DNA of 64,000 bases from Terriglobia bacterium (lineage in GTDB: Bacteria; Acidobacteriota; Terriglobia; Terriglobales; SCQP01). Shown piece by piece: positions 81 through 7,559 of the stretch. The translations under genes and the position numbers were made by a program. The first letter of the stretch is position 1. Every line of letters begins with the position of its first letter. The notes beneath the pieces were generated by a model that was not told the DNA's origin, searched no databases, and saw only the letters and a list, made by a program, of their open reading frames with translations. The DNA lies in the NCBI GenBank assembly GCA_021323595.1, contig JAJPKR010000031.1, positions 13,599-77,598 of the forward strand, read 5' to 3'.

Positions 81-2015
81 TCAGTCCTGACGCGGGAAAT
101 CGGTCAAGTCCCGGGGGGCGGCGGCAGTGCGGGCGGCGTTGAGCACGGCCACGAGATCGATGACCTCCTGGGCGACGGCGCCGGCGATGGGCGGCAGCAG
201 GCCGAAGGCGGCGAAAATCATGCCGGCCAGGCTCAGGCCCATGCCGCCGAGCGCGCTCTCGAGCAAGATGCGCCGCAGGCGGCGCGCGATGTGGATCAGT
301 TCGTCGACTTTTTCGAGCGAAGCTTCCATCACCACGGCATCGGCGGTTTCCGCCGAAACATCGCTGGCCGTACCCAGGGCCACGCCCACGGTTGCCGCCA
401 GCAGCGCCGGCGCGTCGTTCATGCCATCGCCCACGAACAGCGTGAGGGCGCGCCGGGCGGCATCGCGGACGATCGCCACTTTATCCTCCGGGCTTTGATT
501 GGCATAGATTTCGCGGATTCCGACGCTGTCGGCCAAATACCGCACCTCGGACTCGCGATCGCCGGAGAGCAGGACCAAACGATTCACGCGGTGGCGTGGT
601 CCGAGGTGGCCGATAAACGAGCGGCTTTCGCGCCGGGGCGTATCCCGAAAGCGGAACGTGGCGGCGTAGCGGCCATCGACGAGCACGACGCACTCCAGGC
701 CGCCGATCTGAGGCGGCAGCTGCTGCACCGGCACGACCGCTTTCTCGCGGCCGGTGATTTGCACGACGTGGCCCGCGACGTTTCCGCGAAGGCCTTCGCC
801 GGGCTTTTCGCTCACGTCTTCGACGGCAGGCAGCGCCAAATTCGCCTGCGCCGCCGCCCGCAGAATGGCGGCGGCGAGCGGGTGCTTGGAATAGCGCTCC
901 AGGCTGGCGGCCGGCGCCAGCACCTGCGCCGGTTGAAAGCCGGGCGCGCAGTGAATTTCGGTCAACGTGGGCGTGCCGTAGGTCAGCGTTCCCGTCTTGT
1001 CGAAAATCAAGGTCGTGCAGGCATCGATCCGTTCGAGCGCAGCGGGACGGCGGATCACGATGCCGCGGCGCGCGGCCAGCGAAATGGCGCCGATGATCGC
1101 CACGGGAATGGCAATCAGCAGCGGGCAGGGGGTGGCGACCACGATCACGGCGAGGAACCGCTGCGCTCCCCCGCCGGCCGAGGCGGCAGCCAGGGCGATG
1201 GCCAGCGCCAGCGGCGTGTACCACGCGCCGAGCTGATCGCCGATACGCCGCAGTCGCGGGCGCGCCTCGCCCGACAACTGCAACACCGCCACGATCTTGG
1301 CGTAACGAGACTCCGTGGGCAAGCTGGTGGCGCGCACCGTGAGGGCAAAGTCGCCGTTCACGGCGCCGGAGATCACCGTCGAGCCCGGCGCCTTGGCCAT
1401 CAAGAACGGCTCGCCAGTCAAATAGGCTTCGTCCATGCTGCCGTGGCCCTCGGTCACCACGCCATCGACCGGGCAGATCTCGTGCGGCAGCACGACCAAG
1501 GTATCGCCGATGCGAATCTCGTCGAGCGTCACGCTGACCAGAGCGGCGTCTTGCCGGCGATGCGCCACGGATGGCGCGCGCCGCGCCAAAGCCTGCAGGA
1601 CCGACGTCGCGCGCTCGCTTGCGAATCGCTCCAGAGCCGAGCCCCCCGAGAGCATGAGGACGACGATCACCGCGACCAAGTATTCCCCGACCAGAAAGGC
1701 GGTGAGGATCGAAAGCCCCGCGAGCAGATCGGAACCGAATTCGCGACGCCAAAGCCGCCGCCCTAGGTCGAAGAGCTGAGGCACCGCGCCCGCCGCCAAG
1801 GCAATGAACAGCGGCCAATCGTAGCCTGCCGGCGTGGTATGGAAGGCGAAGCGAAGGAGAAGGTGGAGGAGAATCGCGGCCGCGGAAAGAGCCGCGATCC
1901 AGGCCTCCTTTGCCGCCAGCAACCGCCGCGGGCCGGCGGGTGGGCTGGCCGGCGGCGCGCCCGCAGAGGCGAGCGGCGGCCGCACGGCGGCTTCGGTCTT
2001 TTCAGTGGCAGCCAT
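81..2015 (-). CDS. P1B-type heavy-metal P-type ATPase, TPCP (P1B-5-like) subtype, no N-terminal metal-binding domain
   Basis: 644-aa ORF, ATG at 2015. Actuator TGEP (YLTGEPF), phosphorylation site DKTGTLT, hinge GDGMNDAPAL. Metal-site helix reads VVATPCPLLIAIP (TPCP, not CPC/CPH/SPC); last helix AQEVIDLVAVLNA. No HMA/CxxC or His-rich N-terminus. Confidence 0.9.
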   Translation of the reverse strand: MAATEKTEAAVRPPLASAGAPPASPPAGPRRLLAAKEAWIAALSAAAILLHLLLRFAFHTTPAGYDWPLFIALAAGAVPQLFDLGRRLWRREFGSDLLAGLSILTAFLVGEYLVAVIVVLMLSGGSALERFASERATSVLQALARRAPSVAHRRQDAALVSVTLDEIRIGDTLVVLPHEICPVDGVVTEGHGSMDEAYLTGEPFLMAKAPGSTVISGAVNGDFALTVRATSLPTESRYAKIVAVLQLSGEARPRLRRIGDQLGAWYTPLALAIALAAASAGGGAQRFLAVIVVATPCPLLIAIPVAIIGAISLAARRGIVIRRPAALERIDACTTLIFDKTGTLTYGTPTLTEIHCAPGFQPAQVLAPAASLERYSKHPLAAAILRAAAQANLALPAVEDVSEKPGEGLRGNVAGHVVQITGREKAVVPVQQLPPQIGGLECVVLVDGRYAATFRFRDTPRRESRSFIGHLGPRHRVNRLVLLSGDRESEVRYLADSVGIREIYANQSPEDKVAIVRDAARRALTLFVGDGMNDAPALLAATVGVALGTASDVSAETADAVVMEASLEKVDELIHIARRLRRILLESALGGMGLSLAGMIFAAFGLLPPIAGAVAQEVIDLVAVLNAARTAAAPRDLTDFPRQD

Positions 2016-2055: not shown

Positions 2056-2823
2056 CTAGCCGACGAGCGGCAGGCGCTCGGAAGCGGCGCGGTGCTCGGC
2101 CAACTTCCGCTCCAACTCGAGCGCTCGGGGAAACAGGACGTTGTTTTCCAGATGCACGTGGCGATGCAGATCGCGCTCGAATTCGGCCAGCTCCCGATAC
2201 AGGCGGCGATGAGCCGCGCCGGCCTGCGCGGGCGGAGCATAGCCGCCGGTCAACCGCCGTATCTCGGCCACCATGGCGCCGGCGGCGTCGTGATCTTCCA
2301 TCATCACGCGAATGGTGGAGTGCTCGCCGGCGCGACCGGGCGCCGCCGCCGCGGCCGGCCGCTCGCCGCGGCTTGCCATCTCAAGCTGTTCGATACGGGG
2401 AAAGAGCCCGCTCTCTTCCTTCGCCAAATGAAAGAGCGTTTCTTGCGAAAGCCGATTGAAAATGGAGGCGACCGCCGCGAGCTCCGGATACGCGGACTCG
2501 TGCTCCGCCCGCACCTCGCTCAGGCCGCGGCGGATCGCTTGGATCGCGCGCCGCGTGTATTCGTGATGGTGATGGATGATGAAGCCGATGATTTGGCGCA
2601 AGGAGGCTCGCTCCCAGTGCGGCGCTTCTTCGGAAGGGACCGTGGTGACGATTTCCGCCAGGCGCTCCAAGACAAGGTTCACATCCACATCGGCCAGGCG
2701 GCACGCCTCCGCCAAGCTCAACGCGCCGTGGCAGCAATAGTCGATTCCAAATTGCTCGAAGACTTCGATCGTGCCCGGATGCGCGGCCACGATGTCGCGG
2801 ATCAGCGTCTCGGTATCCGCCAT
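2056..2823 (-). CDS. RIC/ScdA-YtfE family di-iron protein (repair of iron centres; ScdA_N + hemerythrin-like domain)
   Basis: N-terminus IRDIVAAHPGTIEVFEQFGIDYCCHGALSLAEAC is ScdA_N-like. It is followed by His/Glu-rich four-helix motifs (IIHHHHEYTR, HLAKEE, MEDHD, HVHLENNVLFP). Start moved from the track's 2850 to ATG 2823, which has GGAGG 6 nt upstream. Confidence 0.85.
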   Translation of the reverse strand: MADTETLIRDIVAAHPGTIEVFEQFGIDYCCHGALSLAEACRLADVDVNLVLERLAEIVTTVPSEEAPHWERASLRQIIGFIIHHHHEYTRRAIQAIRRGLSEVRAEHESAYPELAAVASIFNRLSQETLFHLAKEESGLFPRIEQLEMASRGERPAAAAAPGRAGEHSTIRVMMEDHDAAGAMVAEIRRLTGGYAPPAQAGAAHRRLYRELAEFERDLHRHVHLENNVLFPRALELERKLAEHRAASERLPLVG

Positions 2824-2877
2824 GGGTTGCCTCCTCGCGCTCAATTCCATTGTGAATCCGTCCGCCGCCGCCGGAGA

Positions 2878-2889
2878 TGATTTTTGTCA
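2878..2889. promoter_or_regulatory. CRP/FNR-type (Dnr/NnrR-like) dyad box TGATTTTTGTCA, the reverse complement of TGACAAAAATCA, upstream of the RIC-ATPase operon
   Basis: Exact reverse complement of the box at 4984-4995. Lies 55-66 nt upstream of ATG 2823; CACAAT (minus strand, 2849-2854) sits 23 nt downstream of the box. Confidence 0.45.
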
Positions 2890-3002
2890 CGCACCGCCGT
2901 TCGCGTTCCGGGGTCGCGCCCGCACCCGTTCACCGGCGGATCGAAGCCGGGCGTTGGCGCGCTGCGGAAGCGCCGCAGGTCCGTGATATCGTGAGTACCG
3001 CC

Positions 3003-4415
3003 ATGACCGAAGCCAATCGCAGAGACTTCCTGAAAACCGCCGGCGCCGCCGGTTTGGCGCTGACCGCCGGCTCCCGCGCGCTGGGCTCGCCCATCGGCGC
3101 CAACGATCGCCTGGTCGCGGCGCTCATCGGAGCGGGCCGCCAGGGCACCTATGACATGCTCGATCACTTGCGTCACGGCAACGTGGACGTGGCGGCGATC
3201 TGCGACGTGTACCAGCCCAACCTACAAAAGGCGCTGAAGGAGGCCATGAACGCCGGGGCGCGGGCGCCGCAGGCCGTGAGCGATTTCCGGCGCATCCTCG
3301 ACCGCAAGGATATCGACATCGTCATTATCGGCACGCCCGATCATTGGCACGCGGCGATCATGGTCATGGCCTGCCAAGCAGGCAAGGATGTTTACGTCGA
3401 GAAGCCCATCTGCGTGCGCCTGGCGGAAGGCAAGAAGATGGTCGAAGCCGCGCGCCGCTACAACCGGGTCGTGCAGGTCGGAACGCAGCAACGGTCCGGC
3501 CGAAGTTTCCAGCGCGCCGTGGAACTGATCTGGAGCGGGCAGATCGGCAAGATCGAGTTCGTGCGCACCTGGAATTACGGCAACGAGTACCCCGAGGGCA
3601 TCGGCGATCCGCCCGACTCCTCCGCGCCAGCCGATCTCGATTGGGACATGTGGCTGGGCCCGGCGCCGAAGCGCCCATTCAATTGGAACCGCTTCGGCGT
3701 CGGCGACCGCTGGTCCACGTTCCGGTATTTCTGGGACTACGCCGGCGGCATGATGACCGACTGGGGCGTGCATTTGCTGGACATCGTGAATTGGGCGCTG
3801 CGCGCGGACGGCCCGCGCGTGATCACGGCCAGCGGCGGCAAATACCTATTGCGCGACAACCGCGAAACCCCGGACACGTTGCAAGCCACGTTCGAATATG
3901 CGTTGTCCTCTCCACCGGTGGAGGCCATCCGAGAGGCCGAACCCGGCGGCGGCGCGGCGGTGCCGAACCAGGATCCACCCGGCTGCGTGGTGGTCTATGA
4001 AAATCGCACCGCCAATGCCAACTCCATGTATGGGAAGGGTTATGGCATGGAATTCCATGGGACGTCCGGCACGCTCTTCGTGGATCGCTCCGGTTTTCAG
4101 GTCTATCCCGAAACGAAGCGCGGGCCCAGGGGCGAAGTGAACTTGACGGCGGCGGCGGAAATGCACGAAGAGCCGGACCCGCACGCCAATCACGTCATGA
4201 ACTTCCTCGAGTGCGTGCGCACGCGCCAGCGGCCGATCAGCGACATCGAGATCGGGCATCGTTCGACGTCGGTCTGCCTGCTCGCCAACGTCGCCTATCG
4301 CAGCCGCGAGCGCCTAGTTTGGGATCTGGAAAAGCAGGAACTGATCGAGGGCGGTCAGCAAGCGCGGGAACTCCTCTCCTACAGTTATCGCGCGCCCTGG
4401 GCGCTTAACGTGTAA
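3003..4415 (+). CDS. Gfo/Idh/MocA-family oxidoreductase with Tat signal
   Basis: Tat-type RRDFLKTAGAAGLALTAGS right after ATG 3003. Rossmann segment LIGAGRQG, family motif DVYVEKPI, PDHWH. The track ORF starts earlier (2877), but that N-terminal stretch is Arg-rich and precedes the signal peptide. Confidence 0.85.
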   Translation: MTEANRRDFLKTAGAAGLALTAGSRALGSPIGANDRLVAALIGAGRQGTYDMLDHLRHGNVDVAAICDVYQPNLQKALKEAMNAGARAPQAVSDFRRILDRKDIDIVIIGTPDHWHAAIMVMACQAGKDVYVEKPICVRLAEGKKMVEAARRYNRVVQVGTQQRSGRSFQRAVELIWSGQIGKIEFVRTWNYGNEYPEGIGDPPDSSAPADLDWDMWLGPAPKRPFNWNRFGVGDRWSTFRYFWDYAGGMMTDWGVHLLDIVNWALRADGPRVITASGGKYLLRDNRETPDTLQATFEYALSSPPVEAIREAEPGGGAAVPNQDPPGCVVVYENRTANANSMYGKGYGMEFHGTSGTLFVDRSGFQVYPETKRGPRGEVNLTAAAEMHEEPDPHANHVMNFLECVRTRQRPISDIEIGHRSTSVCLLANVAYRSRERLVWDLEKQELIEGGQQARELLSYSYRAPWALNV

Positions 4416-4419
4416 CGCA

Positions 4420-4453
4420 GGCAAGCGGCGGCATGCGCAGCCGTCCGCTTGCC
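4420..4453. terminator. Hairpin between convergent genes (possible terminator)
   Basis: GGCAAGCGG (4420-4428) pairs with CCGCTTGCC (4445-4453): 9-bp stem, 16-nt loop, 5 nt after the stop at 4415. Only a weak, distant T-tract (CTCTTT) follows. Confidence 0.3.
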
Positions 4454-4509
4454 CGCTCCGGCTCTTTGGGTCCTTGCGCAGAATCCACCTGCGCCCCACG
4501 CGCCAAGCG

Positions 4510-4770
4510 CTATTTCGTTTTCGCGACCTGGACGCGCCATTGGCGCGGACCTTGCTCCAGGTAATCCCACGTGAATTTGCCCTTGTGAACGAAATCCAGC
4601 TCGAAGTACAGCGGCTTGGGATCGTGATCAACCATCAAAACGAAAGCCTCGCCAGGCCTCAACCCTTCGTAGGTGTTGAAAATCAGCGGATGGCGATCCT
4701 GATGCGGAAGGATGCGGACGTCAATCGTCGTTGTGACCTTGGGCGTGCCCTTGCTCGCGGCTTCACTCAT
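4510..4770 (-). CDS. DUF2249-family small protein
   Basis: Core IDVRILPHQDRHPLIFNTYEGLRPGEAFVLMVDHDPKPLYFELDFVHKGKFTWDYLEQGPRQWRVQV matches the DUF2249 pattern. Start set to ATG 4770 because the upstream ATGs (4842, 4809) lie at or before the predicted box and -10. Confidence 0.7.
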   Translation of the reverse strand: MSEAASKGTPKVTTTIDVRILPHQDRHPLIFNTYEGLRPGEAFVLMVDHDPKPLYFELDFVHKGKFTWDYLEQGPRQWRVQVAKTK

Positions 4771-4836
4771 GGTTCGCGCTTGTGCCTCCTGGTGAATCAC
4801 CGCCTGCATTGTTTCGGCCCGAAGCGCTCCTGTCCA

Positions 4837-4848
4837 TGACATAAATCA
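4837..4848. promoter_or_regulatory. CRP/FNR-type dyad box TGACATAAATCA upstream of DUF2249
   Basis: One substitution relative to the boxes at 2878 and 4984. Lies 67-78 nt upstream of ATG 4770; AACAAT (minus strand, 4808-4813) sits 23 nt downstream. Confidence 0.4.
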
Positions 4849-4983
4849 GCGGCGAACCGGCACAACGGGGAAGCGGAGTGCCGAACGCGTCGCGAGCGCT
4901 CCGCTGCGTCCCTTGGCCGCCTGAGTTCGCTCGCGGCCCGCGGATGGTCAACTCGGCGGCAGGCGCAACTCGTCCCTTTCGGC

Positions 4984-4995
4984 TGACAAAAATCA
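4984..4995. promoter_or_regulatory. CRP/FNR-type dyad box TGACAAAAATCA upstream of the NnrS-like gene
   Basis: Lies 83-94 nt upstream of ATG 5078; TACGGT (5019-5024) sits 23 nt downstream. Read toward the downstream gene, it is identical over 14 nt (TGACAAAAATCATC) to the site at 2878-2889. Confidence 0.45.
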
Positions 4996-5077
4996 TCGTT
5001 CGCCGGAGACCCCGGGCTTACGGTCTTGGTAAGTGGATCGCCAAGGCGGCTCTTCCGCGCGGGCCCCACTCCCGAGA

Positions 5078-6634
5078 ATGAACATGGCCAGAACCATTGC
5101 AGCATCGACCAGCATCGCGGAGATCCTCCGGCTGTGTCCTTCGGCGCGAAGAATTTTCGACCGGCACGGACTTCATGGTTGCGGCGGGGAAAATGGGCCG
5201 GCCGAGCCGTTGGAGTTCTTTGCTTGCGTCCATCAGGCGGATCTGGGGGCGCTGCTGGCCGACCTCAATGCAGAGCTTGAAAGACCGGCGGAAGGCTATA
5301 CCTATCGAGAGAACTTGGCCGACTACATCTACCGGCGCTTTTTCAAGGCGGCGATCGGCATCGTCTTCAGCCTGGGTGGATTGTGGGGTGTGATCGCGTT
5401 GCTGCAGATCTCGCGCGGCGAGGCCCTGCTCCAGCCGCAATTGCTTCCCATGATTCATGCGCATGCGCACGCGATGATCTTCGGCTGGGTGGGTCTGTTC
5501 GTGATGGGGTTCGCCTACCAATCGTTTCCGCGCTTCAAGCACACGACGTTGTGGCGGCCTGGCTTGGCGAATCTCACGCTTTGGCTCATGCTGGCCGGCA
5601 TCGTCCTCCGGTTCGGCGCCGACAGCATCGGCCATGGCGCGCTGGCTTTGAGCATGGGCGCGGCTTCCGCGGCCGCGGAAATCGCCGCCATCCTTCTTTT
5701 CGTTCTCATCATCCTGCGCACCGCCCGCCAATCCGTAAATCCGCGCAGTCCCTATGAGGCCTTTATCCTCGCGGCGCTTGCCTGGTTCTTGATTCAGTCG
5801 ATTTTCAGCGCCTTCTTCTTTTTCGCTCAGGCCACAGCGGCGGACATGCAGGAAACCGTGCGGCGAATCGCCCTGCTGGATGGGCCGTTGCGGGACATGC
5901 AACTCTTCGGCTTCGCCGCCTTGATTATCGCGGGAGTGAGCCAGCGGTTCGTCCCCGGCGTCTATGGCCTGGGGGCGCCGAAGCACGGCCGGCAGCGGAT
6001 GATCTTTTGGTTGATGAATGGCAGCTTGGTGCTGGACATCGCCAGCTACCTTGCGCTGCTGACGAGCGGCAATGGCGTCTGGGCTTGGGCCCTCGAATTT
6101 TCTTACCTGCTCATGGCGCTATGGCCGGTGCTGCTGGTGCTCCAATTGCGGATTTTTTCGCCCACGACGCAGCCCGACCGGAGTTGGAAGTTCATCCGCG
6201 CCGCTTACGTCTGGCTGCTCATCGCGATGTTCATGATGCCGCTGCTAATGCCCTATAGCTTGTGGATGGGCGAGGCTTTTTCGCATGCCTTTTGGGGCGC
6301 GCACCGTCATGCCTTCACTGTCGGGTTCATCAGCATGATGATCGTGGGAGTTTCGTCACGCGTAGTGCCGATCTTGGCCGGGGTTGACTCCAGCCGGCTC
6401 GCGAATCTATGGGGCCCGTTCCTCCTGCTCAACGCCGGCTGCGCCGGCCGGGTGATTCTGGAGATTTTGACCGACGTTGCCCCAGCGATCGCCTATCCCT
6501 TGATCGGAATCACGGGCCTATTGGAATTGGGCGCGCTGGGGTGGTGGGGTATCGGGCTGTGGCGCGTGATGAACCTGGGAAAGACTCGGCGCGCAACCGC
6601 CGCCGCGAATGCCACGCCGGTGGCAGCGGCGTAA
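5078..6634 (+). CDS. NnrS-family heme/copper membrane protein with N-terminal DUF1858-like domain
   Basis: N-terminal ~65 aa (IAEILRLCPSARRIFDRHGLHGCGGENGPAEPLEFF) look like the DUF1858 / hybrid-cluster-associated redox domain. About 12 hydrophobic helices follow, with conserved-His motifs (MIHAHAHAMIFGW, HAFWGAHRHAFTVGF) as in NnrS. Start could be ATG 5078 or 5084. Confidence 0.7.
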   Translation: MNMARTIAASTSIAEILRLCPSARRIFDRHGLHGCGGENGPAEPLEFFACVHQADLGALLADLNAELERPAEGYTYRENLADYIYRRFFKAAIGIVFSLGGLWGVIALLQISRGEALLQPQLLPMIHAHAHAMIFGWVGLFVMGFAYQSFPRFKHTTLWRPGLANLTLWLMLAGIVLRFGADSIGHGALALSMGAASAAAEIAAILLFVLIILRTARQSVNPRSPYEAFILAALAWFLIQSIFSAFFFFAQATAADMQETVRRIALLDGPLRDMQLFGFAALIIAGVSQRFVPGVYGLGAPKHGRQRMIFWLMNGSLVLDIASYLALLTSGNGVWAWALEFSYLLMALWPVLLVLQLRIFSPTTQPDRSWKFIRAAYVWLLIAMFMMPLLMPYSLWMGEAFSHAFWGAHRHAFTVGFISMMIVGVSSRVVPILAGVDSSRLANLWGPFLLLNAGCAGRVILEILTDVAPAIAYPLIGITGLLELGALGWWGIGLWRVMNLGKTRRATAAANATPVAAA

Positions 6635-6659: not shown

Positions 6660-7559
6660 TCAGGCGATCGGAAAGGGATTGTCGGAGTTTAGGCCGGAAG
6701 GCCGGCCGGGCGGAAACCGGGAGTCCAGCAGCGCCTTGAATGGCGCAAAGCCCTCTTGTTTTCCTGTCAGCGTTTGGTAGCAAGCTTCAAGCGTCGCGCC
6801 GGCCGCAGCGACGACGGCGGGCCACGCAAACCCTAGCTGGTAATGCAAATAGTTGAGGAATAACACCGCGCAGCCGGTTGAAACCGCATTTTGGTCGGTG
6901 GGGTCGGTGCGGCTCACCCAATCCGGGCGCGGGGAGTCCAACCAAGCGGCAGCGGTCGCGAACCCGTCGAGTTGCGCGGGATAGAGCTCGGTCGCGAGGA
7001 CGCGCGATAACCCCTCGCCGTTGCTCGCGCCGCAATCCCAGCCCCGATTCTGCGCCGCCGAAAATACCTCCACCGCCTCGGCGACCATGAGAAAGCGGGT
7101 CAGGTCAAGATTCGGCGGAGTTGCGCTATCTCCATCGCAGTAGAGATCCGTGCCGGTGCAGCCATAATGGTACGCGCCGCCGATGCCGGGCGCGATGACC
7201 ACGTTCAGCGGCAGATTGGGCAGCGCAAGCTGGTTGAAGAACTCCGACATGGCCGCATAGTCGCGCTCGCACACGGCCAAGATCCCGGCCGCGATGGCGG
7301 GCCCGTTGCTGAAGCCGGTTTGATAATAGACGCCGAAATGGGTGGTGCTGCCGTCGAAGGTGACGGCGCGATCGAACCCTGCCGCCGGAGCCGCCGCGGC
7401 CCCGCACCGCACTTCCAGGAGCGGCCCGCGAGCGAGGACACGCAGCACGGCGTCGCGGCCCCGGCCTTCGCGCCCCGGCTCGGTTGGCTTGTGAGTCTGG
7501 CGAGTACGCCGCTTGGGTGCGGTTCCGGCGTCCTTGCCGGCATGCTTCTTCGGCGCCAC
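6660..7559 (-). CDS. Hypothetical protein with Lys/Arg-rich N-terminal tail; no family recognised
   Basis: 299-aa ORF with protein-like composition (Y/F/W/N/D-rich core). GTG start at 7559 with GGGAGG 5 nt upstream. No signal peptide, TM helix or catalytic motif that I recognise. Confidence 0.6.
   Translation of the reverse strand: MAPKKHAGKDAGTAPKRRTRQTHKPTEPGREGRGRDAVLRVLARGPLLEVRCGAAAAPAAGFDRAVTFDGSTTHFGVYYQTGFSNGPAIAAGILAVCERDYAAMSEFFNQLALPNLPLNVVIAPGIGGAYHYGCTGTDLYCDGDSATPPNLDLTRFLMVAEAVEVFSAAQNRGWDCGASNGEGLSRVLATELYPAQLDGFATAAAWLDSPRPDWVSRTDPTDQNAVSTGCAVLFLNYLHYQLGFAWPAVVAAAGATLEACYQTLTGKQEGFAPFKALLDSRFPPGRPSGLNSDNPFPIA

Follow-up and report, generated by a model that had tools for sequence, protein, structure and literature searches.

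The described systems closest to the promoter boxes considered here belong to the CRP/FNR family of regulators. HcpR, from delta-proteobacteria and cyanobacteria, recognizes wTGTGAnnnnnnTCACAw (in members with R180) or wyTTGACnnnnGTCAArw, and its targets are nitrosative-stress genes, among them norB in Synechocystis (Rodionov et al. 2005, PMC1274295). DNR of Pseudomonas and NnrR of alpha-proteobacteria act at class II FNR-type promoters of genes related to nitric oxide (NO), including nnrS and dnrN (RIC). Our analysis concerns a 64-kb stretch of DNA (65.8% G+C; the window) from contig JAJPKR010000031.1 of a Terriglobia bacterium, in which three copies of a 12-bp dyad, the box, lie in front of genes for RIC and a P-type ATPase, for DUF2249, and for a DUF1858-NnrS protein. 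In relatives, the box, its fixed spacing from the -10 hexamer and its target genes are conserved, and a gene of a CRP/FNR-family regulator is linked to them. With good confidence, we take the whole mechanism to be that of class II CRP/FNR-type activator operators of an NO/nitrosative-stress regulon. The boxes, hexamers and target genes of the window are as follows:

2878..2889, minus strand: box 1, TGACAAAAATCA; would serve the RIC-ATPase promoter as activator site, centre about -41.5
2849..2854, minus strand: -10-like hexamer CACAAT, 23 nt 3' of box 1; predicted start near 2842
2056..2823, minus strand: gene of the di-iron repair protein RIC (ScdA_N + hemerythrin; Pfam), first gene of the box-1 transcription unit
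81..2015, minus strand: gene of a P1B-type heavy-metal ATPase, 40 nt 3' of the RIC gene and on the same strand
4837..4848, minus strand: box 2, TGATTTATGTCA toward DUF2249 and TGACATAAATCA on the plus strand; 13.0 bits with the family matrix
4808..4813, minus strand: -10-like hexamer AACAAT, 23 nt 3' of box 2; predicted start near 4801
4510..4770, minus strand: DUF2249 gene (Pfam PF10006, 93.7 bits)
4984..4995, plus strand: box 3, TGACAAAAATCA; would serve the DUF1858-NnrS promoter as activator site
5019..5024, plus strand: -10 hexamer TACGGT, 23 nt 3' of box 3; predicted start near 5031
5084..6634, plus strand: gene of an NnrS-family membrane protein (Pfam NnrS) with a DUF1858/ScdA_N-like N-terminal module

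The first-pass annotation, made from the letters of this stretch, had drawn attention to these three sites, and its description of them is accurate: the coordinates and sequences agree, box 2 is a copy with one substitution, boxes 1 and 3, each read in the direction of its gene, share a stretch of 14 identical nt (TGACAAAAATCATC), and the distance from each box to TACGGT, CACAAT or AACAAT is exactly 23 nt. The assignments of the genes to RIC-ATPase, DUF2249 and NnrS are upheld by Pfam and NCBIfam. The pattern TGACAWAAATCA occurs three times in the 64 kb, each time between genes, and no further copy appears when one mismatch is allowed; at this tolerance, 0.17 chance copies are expected, and none of 100 dinucleotide shuffles gave three. 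The boxes are also the only TGA-N6-TCA sites in the window whose spacer consists entirely of A and T.

The window NnrS-like protein has thousands of homologues in Terriglobia, and the comparison set comprises 80 NnrS-orthologous Terriglobia loci from species-representative genomes, 998 kb in total. A perfect 12-bp palindrome, TGAC-N4-GTCA, stands 5' of almost every orthologue, often in two copies: it occurs 158 times in the 998 kb, as against 8-15 occurrences of composition-matched control patterns and 13 predicted from composition. When all palindromes of the form 4-mer/gap/4-mer were enumerated without using the motif of the first-pass annotation, TGAC-N4-GTCA ranked first, with 67 of the 101 regions upstream of NnrS containing it, and the next two palindromes were sub-patterns of it. 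Some 12 sites lie inside genes; by inspection, these have G+C-rich spacers and match the chance expectation. An alignment of NnrS promoters from six lineages has a mean column identity of 30% and a single invariant block, TGACAAAA(G/A)TCATCG, and the extended family consensus reads c-y-G-TGAC-N4-GTCA-T-C-G. Because the palindrome is enriched, heads the enumeration and is the sole invariant block in diverged spacers, the box is, judged by its sequence record, a selected cis-element. The window version lies one substitution from the family form. Conservation of the box at orthologous genes, a point on which the first-pass annotation's proposal depended, thus takes the form of a phylogenetic footprint across the 80 loci.

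The promoter geometry is equally regular. For 157 usable boxes, TAnnnT hexamers were tabulated at every downstream offset in both orientations: the hexamer is found at +23 in 65 and at +24 in 23 of them (88/157), and every other offset has 0-6. The relatives' hemerythrin promoters carry CAnnAT and their radical-SAM promoters TnnAAT, in both cases at +23, and CACAAT and AACAAT of the window are of the same type as these. With 23 nt between a 12-bp dyad and the hexamer, the dyad centre falls 29.5 bp 5' of the hexamer's first base. This corresponds to -41.5, where class II sites are centred, and these promoters have no -35 hexamer. In the window and throughout the family, a fixed distance between site and -10 hexamer stands in place of a -35 element, the start positions being predicted ones; the class II spacing read from the window alone therefore reappears as a sharp family-wide peak. 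The rigid 23/24-nt spacing and the lack of a -35 element together constitute an activator geometry. The sites have a productive orientation, with G before the box in 87 of 88 sites, T after it in 79 of 88, spacers that end in AA, and T-C-G next to the box on its promoter side. In shape they are TGA-N6-TCA dyads, TGAC-N4-(G/A)TCA in the window and TGAC-N4-GTCA in the relatives. The possibility that the box is itself a -35 element, its TGACA resembling TTGACA, was considered and rejected, its distance to the -10 hexamers being 30 nt.

Counting a box when it lies within 300 nt upstream of a gene, we find it before NnrS in 64 of the 80 loci. It also precedes RIC in 14/15 loci (in the form TGAC-N4-GTCA), a 190-aa hemerythrin in 12/14, a small ScdA_N/DUF1858 protein in 12/17 and a TIGR04053 radical-SAM/SPASM gene in 17/22. 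DUF2249 is usually the second gene after hemerythrin in the relatives, and the box set of some lineages includes qNor and a multihaem cytochrome. The predicted regulon thus includes each of the three window targets as a conserved member. In about 1 Mb of neighbourhoods, neither hcp nor frdX was seen behind a box. The TIGR04053 gene is divergent from NnrS in L026, L028, L030, L031, L051, L056, L066 and others (e.g. L028:6139-7314); its protein scores 498 bits, and the next best model is the haem b synthase AhbD. Its place under the box hints at a haem- or cofactor-related step in the NO response.

Clustering of the open reading frames (ORFs) of the 80 loci reveals a candidate regulator of some 232 aa. 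It combines a cNMP_binding domain (PF00027, E 1e-22) and an HTH_Crp_2 domain (PF13545, E 5e-17), belongs hence to the CRP/FNR family, and is encoded within 8 kb in 29 of the 80. At E <= 1e-30, its subfamily numbers over 2,000 proteins; among its homologues is one (P0196, 62% identity) from a metagenome-assembled genome of Candidatus Koribacter versatilis. The first-pass annotation had expected a Dnr/NnrR-like factor, which is not borne out: the relatives' regulator is orthologous to none of the curated Dnr, NnrR, Fnr and FixK models and stays far below all cut-offs of the curated NCBIfam equivalogs (FtrB, 78-87 bits with a cut-off of 211; Fnr NF008365, 59-67 bits with a cut-off of 228). Its best matches in the PDB are generic, namely M. 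tuberculosis CRP, GlxR and Thermus CRP, with DNR (3dkw) at E 6e-24. An alignment of 28 regulators contains no FNR-type N-terminal Cys cluster ([4Fe-4S]), so the protein is not FNR proper; its sensor domain has two conserved internal Cys and a conserved His. The recognition helix is nearly invariant (QELAAQIGTVRELVSRNLSRLQ; GTVRELVSRNL; pattern R-E-x-x-S-R) and has equivalents of R180, E181 and R185 of CRP. According to the published rule, R180 goes together with a G in the third position of the motif, and E181 with an A in the sixth (PMC1274295), and a helix of this type predicts the observed yGTGA of c-y-G-TGAC-N4-GTCA. None of the 29 linked regulator genes is itself preceded by a box.

How does this system compare with the described ones? 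HcpR shares with it the membership of the CRP/FNR family without the FNR Cys cluster, and the nitrosative-stress targets. The Terriglobia consensus c-y-G-TGAC-N4-GTCA combines G3 of the first HcpR motif with C7 of the second, and the yGTGAC-N4-GTCA logo occurs together with an R-E-x-x-S-R helix. Unlike HcpR, the core targets are NnrS, RIC, hemerythrin, DUF1858, DUF2249 and TIGR04053, with no hcp/frdX behind the boxes examined, and the motif is strongly oriented, with GTCA-TCG on the promoter side. DNR and NnrR resemble it in promoter class and targets and differ in their boxes: theirs are TTGATnnnnATCAA and TTGCGnnnnCGCAA, as compared with TGACnnnnGTCA in Terriglobia, where G and not T precedes TGA. 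The half-site is TGAC, with that G in 87/88 sites, and neither the DNR box TTGAT-N4-ATCAA nor the NnrR box TTGCG-N4-CGCAA describes it; only the variant half of the window boxes, ATCA, resembles the DNR/FNR half-site. Furthermore, nir/nos genes are absent from the Terriglobia neighbourhoods. Class II promoters of E. coli CRP (-41.5) have the same distance of 29.5 bp between dyad centre and -10, no -35 element, the residues R180, E181 and R185, and a distal half GTGA; in contrast, the targets and presumably the signal are different in Terriglobia, the spacer is A-rich and asymmetric, and the proximal half is TCATCG rather than TCACA. Of the first-pass annotation's view of the box, the CRP/FNR-type site therefore stands and the FNR-like consensus TTGAT-N4-ATCAA does not, the family form being nearest to HcpR/CRP-type motifs and not to the NnrR box. 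On the whole, the operator is closest to the HcpR motifs and the function closest to the NO regulons of HcpR, DNR and NnrR, the regulator being a possible HcpR.

The window departs from its relatives in one respect. In a training set of relatives' sites defined by TGA-N6-TCA with TAnnnT at +23/24, box positions 4 and 9 being left free (n = 93), position 4 is C in 90 and position 9 is G in 90 and A once. All three window boxes carry the same G-to-A change, giving an ATCA half-site that is found in 1-3 of the 93; on the TGAC-AwAA-ATCA strand, the variant base is always the next one after the A-run. As a description of the window, the box of the first-pass annotation is correct; as the consensus of the group it is not, the ATCA half-site being a derived, lineage-specific variant. 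The family matrix nevertheless places the three boxes at the top of the 64 kb, at 22.7 (box 1), 14.9 and 13.0 bits, with the next site at 10.6. In soil populations diverged by 5-10% (runs X10, X12, X13, X16), the three boxes are kept letter for letter; the 313-nt DUF2249-NnrS spacer has 36 substitutions and 4 indels (40 positions) in these populations, and the 179-nt RIC spacer 9 substitutions and 1 indel. The chance that all 36 box positions are spared while 50 of 492 spacer positions vary is P about 0.02. In the near relatives, box 1 and its CACAAT hexamer, as well as 4819-4854 (box 2) and 4977-5006 (box 3), are unchanged, and the sole change in a -10 hexamer, 5021 C>A, turns TACGGT into TAAGGT, which is still TAnnnT. 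Since the boxes are intact in diverged populations and still rank at the top of the matrix, the ATCA variant looks maintained rather than decaying.

Within the mechanism we favour, a homodimeric CRP/FNR-family factor typical of Terriglobia would be the most likely binder of the 12-bp dyad with its extended form c-y-G-TGAC-N4-GTCA-T-C-G. The promoters would be of class II, activator-dependent and -35-less, and the factor, bound at -41.5, would recruit RNA polymerase and switch on RIC with the P-type ATPase, DUF2249 and DUF1858-NnrS in the window. Its likely signal would be NO or nitrosative stress, sensed by the N-terminal cNMP-type domain; we infer NO from the target genes, and we likewise infer activation instead of repression and a regulator elsewhere in this genome. 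As a CRP/FNR-type NO-stress regulon, the proposal of the first-pass annotation gains support from the footprint, the spacing and the CRP/FNR-family gene linked in 29/80 relatives. Several points weigh against it. The first-pass annotation had reported no CRP/FNR gene in the window, and tblastn and the family HMM on all stop-to-stop frames agree; none was found in the 5 kb to the left either. The window boxes are off consensus at a nearly invariant position, and their 13-23 bits are below the family median of 28.8; two of the three -10 hexamers of the window, CACAAT and AACAAT, are weak; and the 80 loci are phylogenetically related, so that the counts are of non-independent events.

The same class II CRP/FNR mechanism could respond to oxygen limitation, redox state or another ligand instead of NO. 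The closest solved relatives by sequence are indeed cAMP-type CRPs (M. tuberculosis CRP, GlxR), ahead of DNR, narGH and MobA genes lie near some loci, and the conserved two Cys and one His of the sensor domain could be read in this sense. We nevertheless consider it unlikely, as the N-terminal Cys cluster of FNR is absent, the conserved targets are linked to NO (RIC, NnrS, hemerythrin; qNor in some lineages), and the boxes do not precede respiratory or carbon-catabolic genes in the 1 Mb examined. In a second alternative, the window boxes would be decaying relics in a lineage that lost its regulator and has an unrelated 299-aa ORF in its place. This would be in keeping with the absence of the gene both from the window and from the 5 kb left of it, with the change of all three boxes at a position that is C/G in 90/93 of the relatives' sites, and with the close lineage L001, which has NnrS without a box or a regulator nearby. 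Yet there is a single change per box and it is the same in all three, which makes independent decay very unlikely; the TCG flank and the 23-nt spacing are kept, though the spacer is unalignable between lineages; and the populations at 5-10% divergence keep the boxes where about 10% of spacer positions vary (P about 0.02, as above). Decay therefore seems to us quite improbable.

In a third explanation, to which we give very little credence, a repressor from a different family, for instance of the NO-sensitive Rrf2/NsrR type, would use the box as its operator. NsrR does control ytfE (RIC), hmp and nnrS in proteobacteria (PMC1274295), a target set that speaks for it, and an Rrf2 gene is present in 4 of the 80 loci, in some of them adjoining a box. 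However, the spacing and the lack of a -35 hexamer are those of an activator; the TGA-N6-TCA shape is that of CRP/FNR sites and matches the helix of the linked regulator; the NsrR consensus gATGyAT-N5-ATrCATc (PMC1274295) is dissimilar to the box; and against the four loci with Rrf2 stand 29 with the CRP/FNR gene. The class II CRP/FNR-type regulon thus remains the reading that we prefer.

The window lineage may have exchanged the symmetric TGAC-N4-GTCA for the asymmetric TGAC-AwAA-ATCA throughout its local regulon, which would be a mark of cis-trans co-evolution. We put this forward tentatively and hold it to be possible but doubtful. Either the half-site preference of this lineage's regulator would have shifted, or, once the linked regulator beside NnrS was lost, a CRP/FNR paralogue that prefers TGAT in the manner of FNR/Dnr would have taken over. 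One relative, L019, is the only one whose linked regulator (L019:9997-10734) has a different helix, GSVREVITRILNRF, and its NnrS box (L019:7639-7650) has a TGAT half-site, TGATAAAAGTCA, followed by TATCTT at +23. On this one example, helix and half-site may be correlated.

In the close relatives L004, L009 and L012, the regulator gene lies just 3' of NnrS and is convergent with it. In the window, this usual place is occupied by a 299-aa ORF (6660-7559, minus strand), likewise convergent with and just 3' of NnrS, which has no Pfam or NCBIfam match and is unrelated to the regulator. To the left of the window, next to the ATPase gene, L081:1-4997 encodes an ABC ATPase, a DUF3037 protein, a histidine kinase and a sigma-54 response regulator of the NtrC type; these genes are all unlike NorR, lacking any GAF domain match. 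Seven homologues were considered as the window genome's own regulator (P0126, P0137, P0124, P0136, P0138, P0238, P0141) and rejected, all of them being from other samples; one of the seven belongs to the sister assembly GCA_037025285.1 and goes with a canonical GTCA box.

In further contigs, the regulator gene is found directly 5' of a box that is followed by a second NnrS paralogue (NnrS-B), RIC or qNor. The loci L002, L003, L013, L077, L087, L098 and L099 have such a second module (e.g. L013:6642-9528), consisting of the regulator, the box, the NnrS paralogue (~525 aa) and a membrane protein of about 135-150 aa without a family; its box has the very conserved extended form ccaTGACTAAAGTCAtcgaa. 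The module of regulator, box and NnrS-B is absent from the window. A metagenome scan for a hypothetical ATCA variant of the box between regulator and NnrS-B (CCATGACTAAAATCATCGAA) gave five chance matches only, of which three fall within the beginning of a gene for an ABC ATPase and two in contigs of low G+C.

A few observations on single loci complete the picture. In L001, a close lineage (NnrS 77% identical), L001:7790-8000 holds no box, and the 8 kb around NnrS contain neither box nor regulator, so that not every lineage of the clade has the regulon. L079 and L069 are loci of the Terriglobia type (NnrS 56-60% identical, canonical box) that lie in metagenome-assembled genomes labelled Chlamydiota and Candidatus Limnocylindrales; this placement reflects either contaminated bins or a transferred locus. 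Short tandem repeats adjoin some boxes, namely gtcgacagttgacagtcgacagttgacagtc in L028:7370-7600 and gtcgagagtcgagagtcaagagtcgagag in L030:7820-7920, and L049:7870-7910 has three TGAAACCTGTCA units, 14 nt apart, beside a box.

As to the genes of the window, RIC and the P1B-type ATPase are probably co-transcribed, given the gap of 40 nt. The RIC product scores 201 bits with NCBIfam TIGR03652 (cut-off 204.7), and its gene has a Shine-Dalgarno sequence, GAGGAGG, at 2830-2836. Public gene calls are split over the start of DUF2249, between 86 aa (4770) and 99 aa (4809). The 86-aa reading has ATG at 4770 with GGAGG 7 nt 5' of it and is consistent with the predicted promoter; the 99-aa start falls at the -10 hexamer, so the shorter form is the one that suits the promoter. 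The NnrS product (P0001) has 516 aa, and the DUF1858/ScdA_N matches are found in its orthologues. Between the box-linked genes lies one more feature:

3003-4415, on the strand divergent from the box-1 unit: gene of a Tat-signal GFO/IDH/MocA oxidoreductase

That box 1 might drive this divergent gene as well was rejected, the hexamer at +23 on that side being GTCGCG, which is not -10-like.

Bacteria of the Terriglobia (Acidobacteriota) rank among the most abundant in soil, and soil is a major site at which NO and N2O are turned over. Full-text searches gave no description of how Terriglobia respond transcriptionally to nitrogen oxides, nor of such a regulon in Acidobacteriota. The type of mechanism is a textbook one; what seems new is its occurrence in Acidobacteriota, and the one genuinely odd feature is the fixed asymmetric ATCA variant. 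Four elements make up the proposed regulon: the consensus of its operator, the architecture of its promoters together with predicted starts, a subfamily of candidate regulators and a conserved set of targets. It would tie poorly understood families, namely DUF1858-NnrS, DUF2249, hemerythrin, TIGR04053 and RIC with the P-type ATPase, to one stress response.

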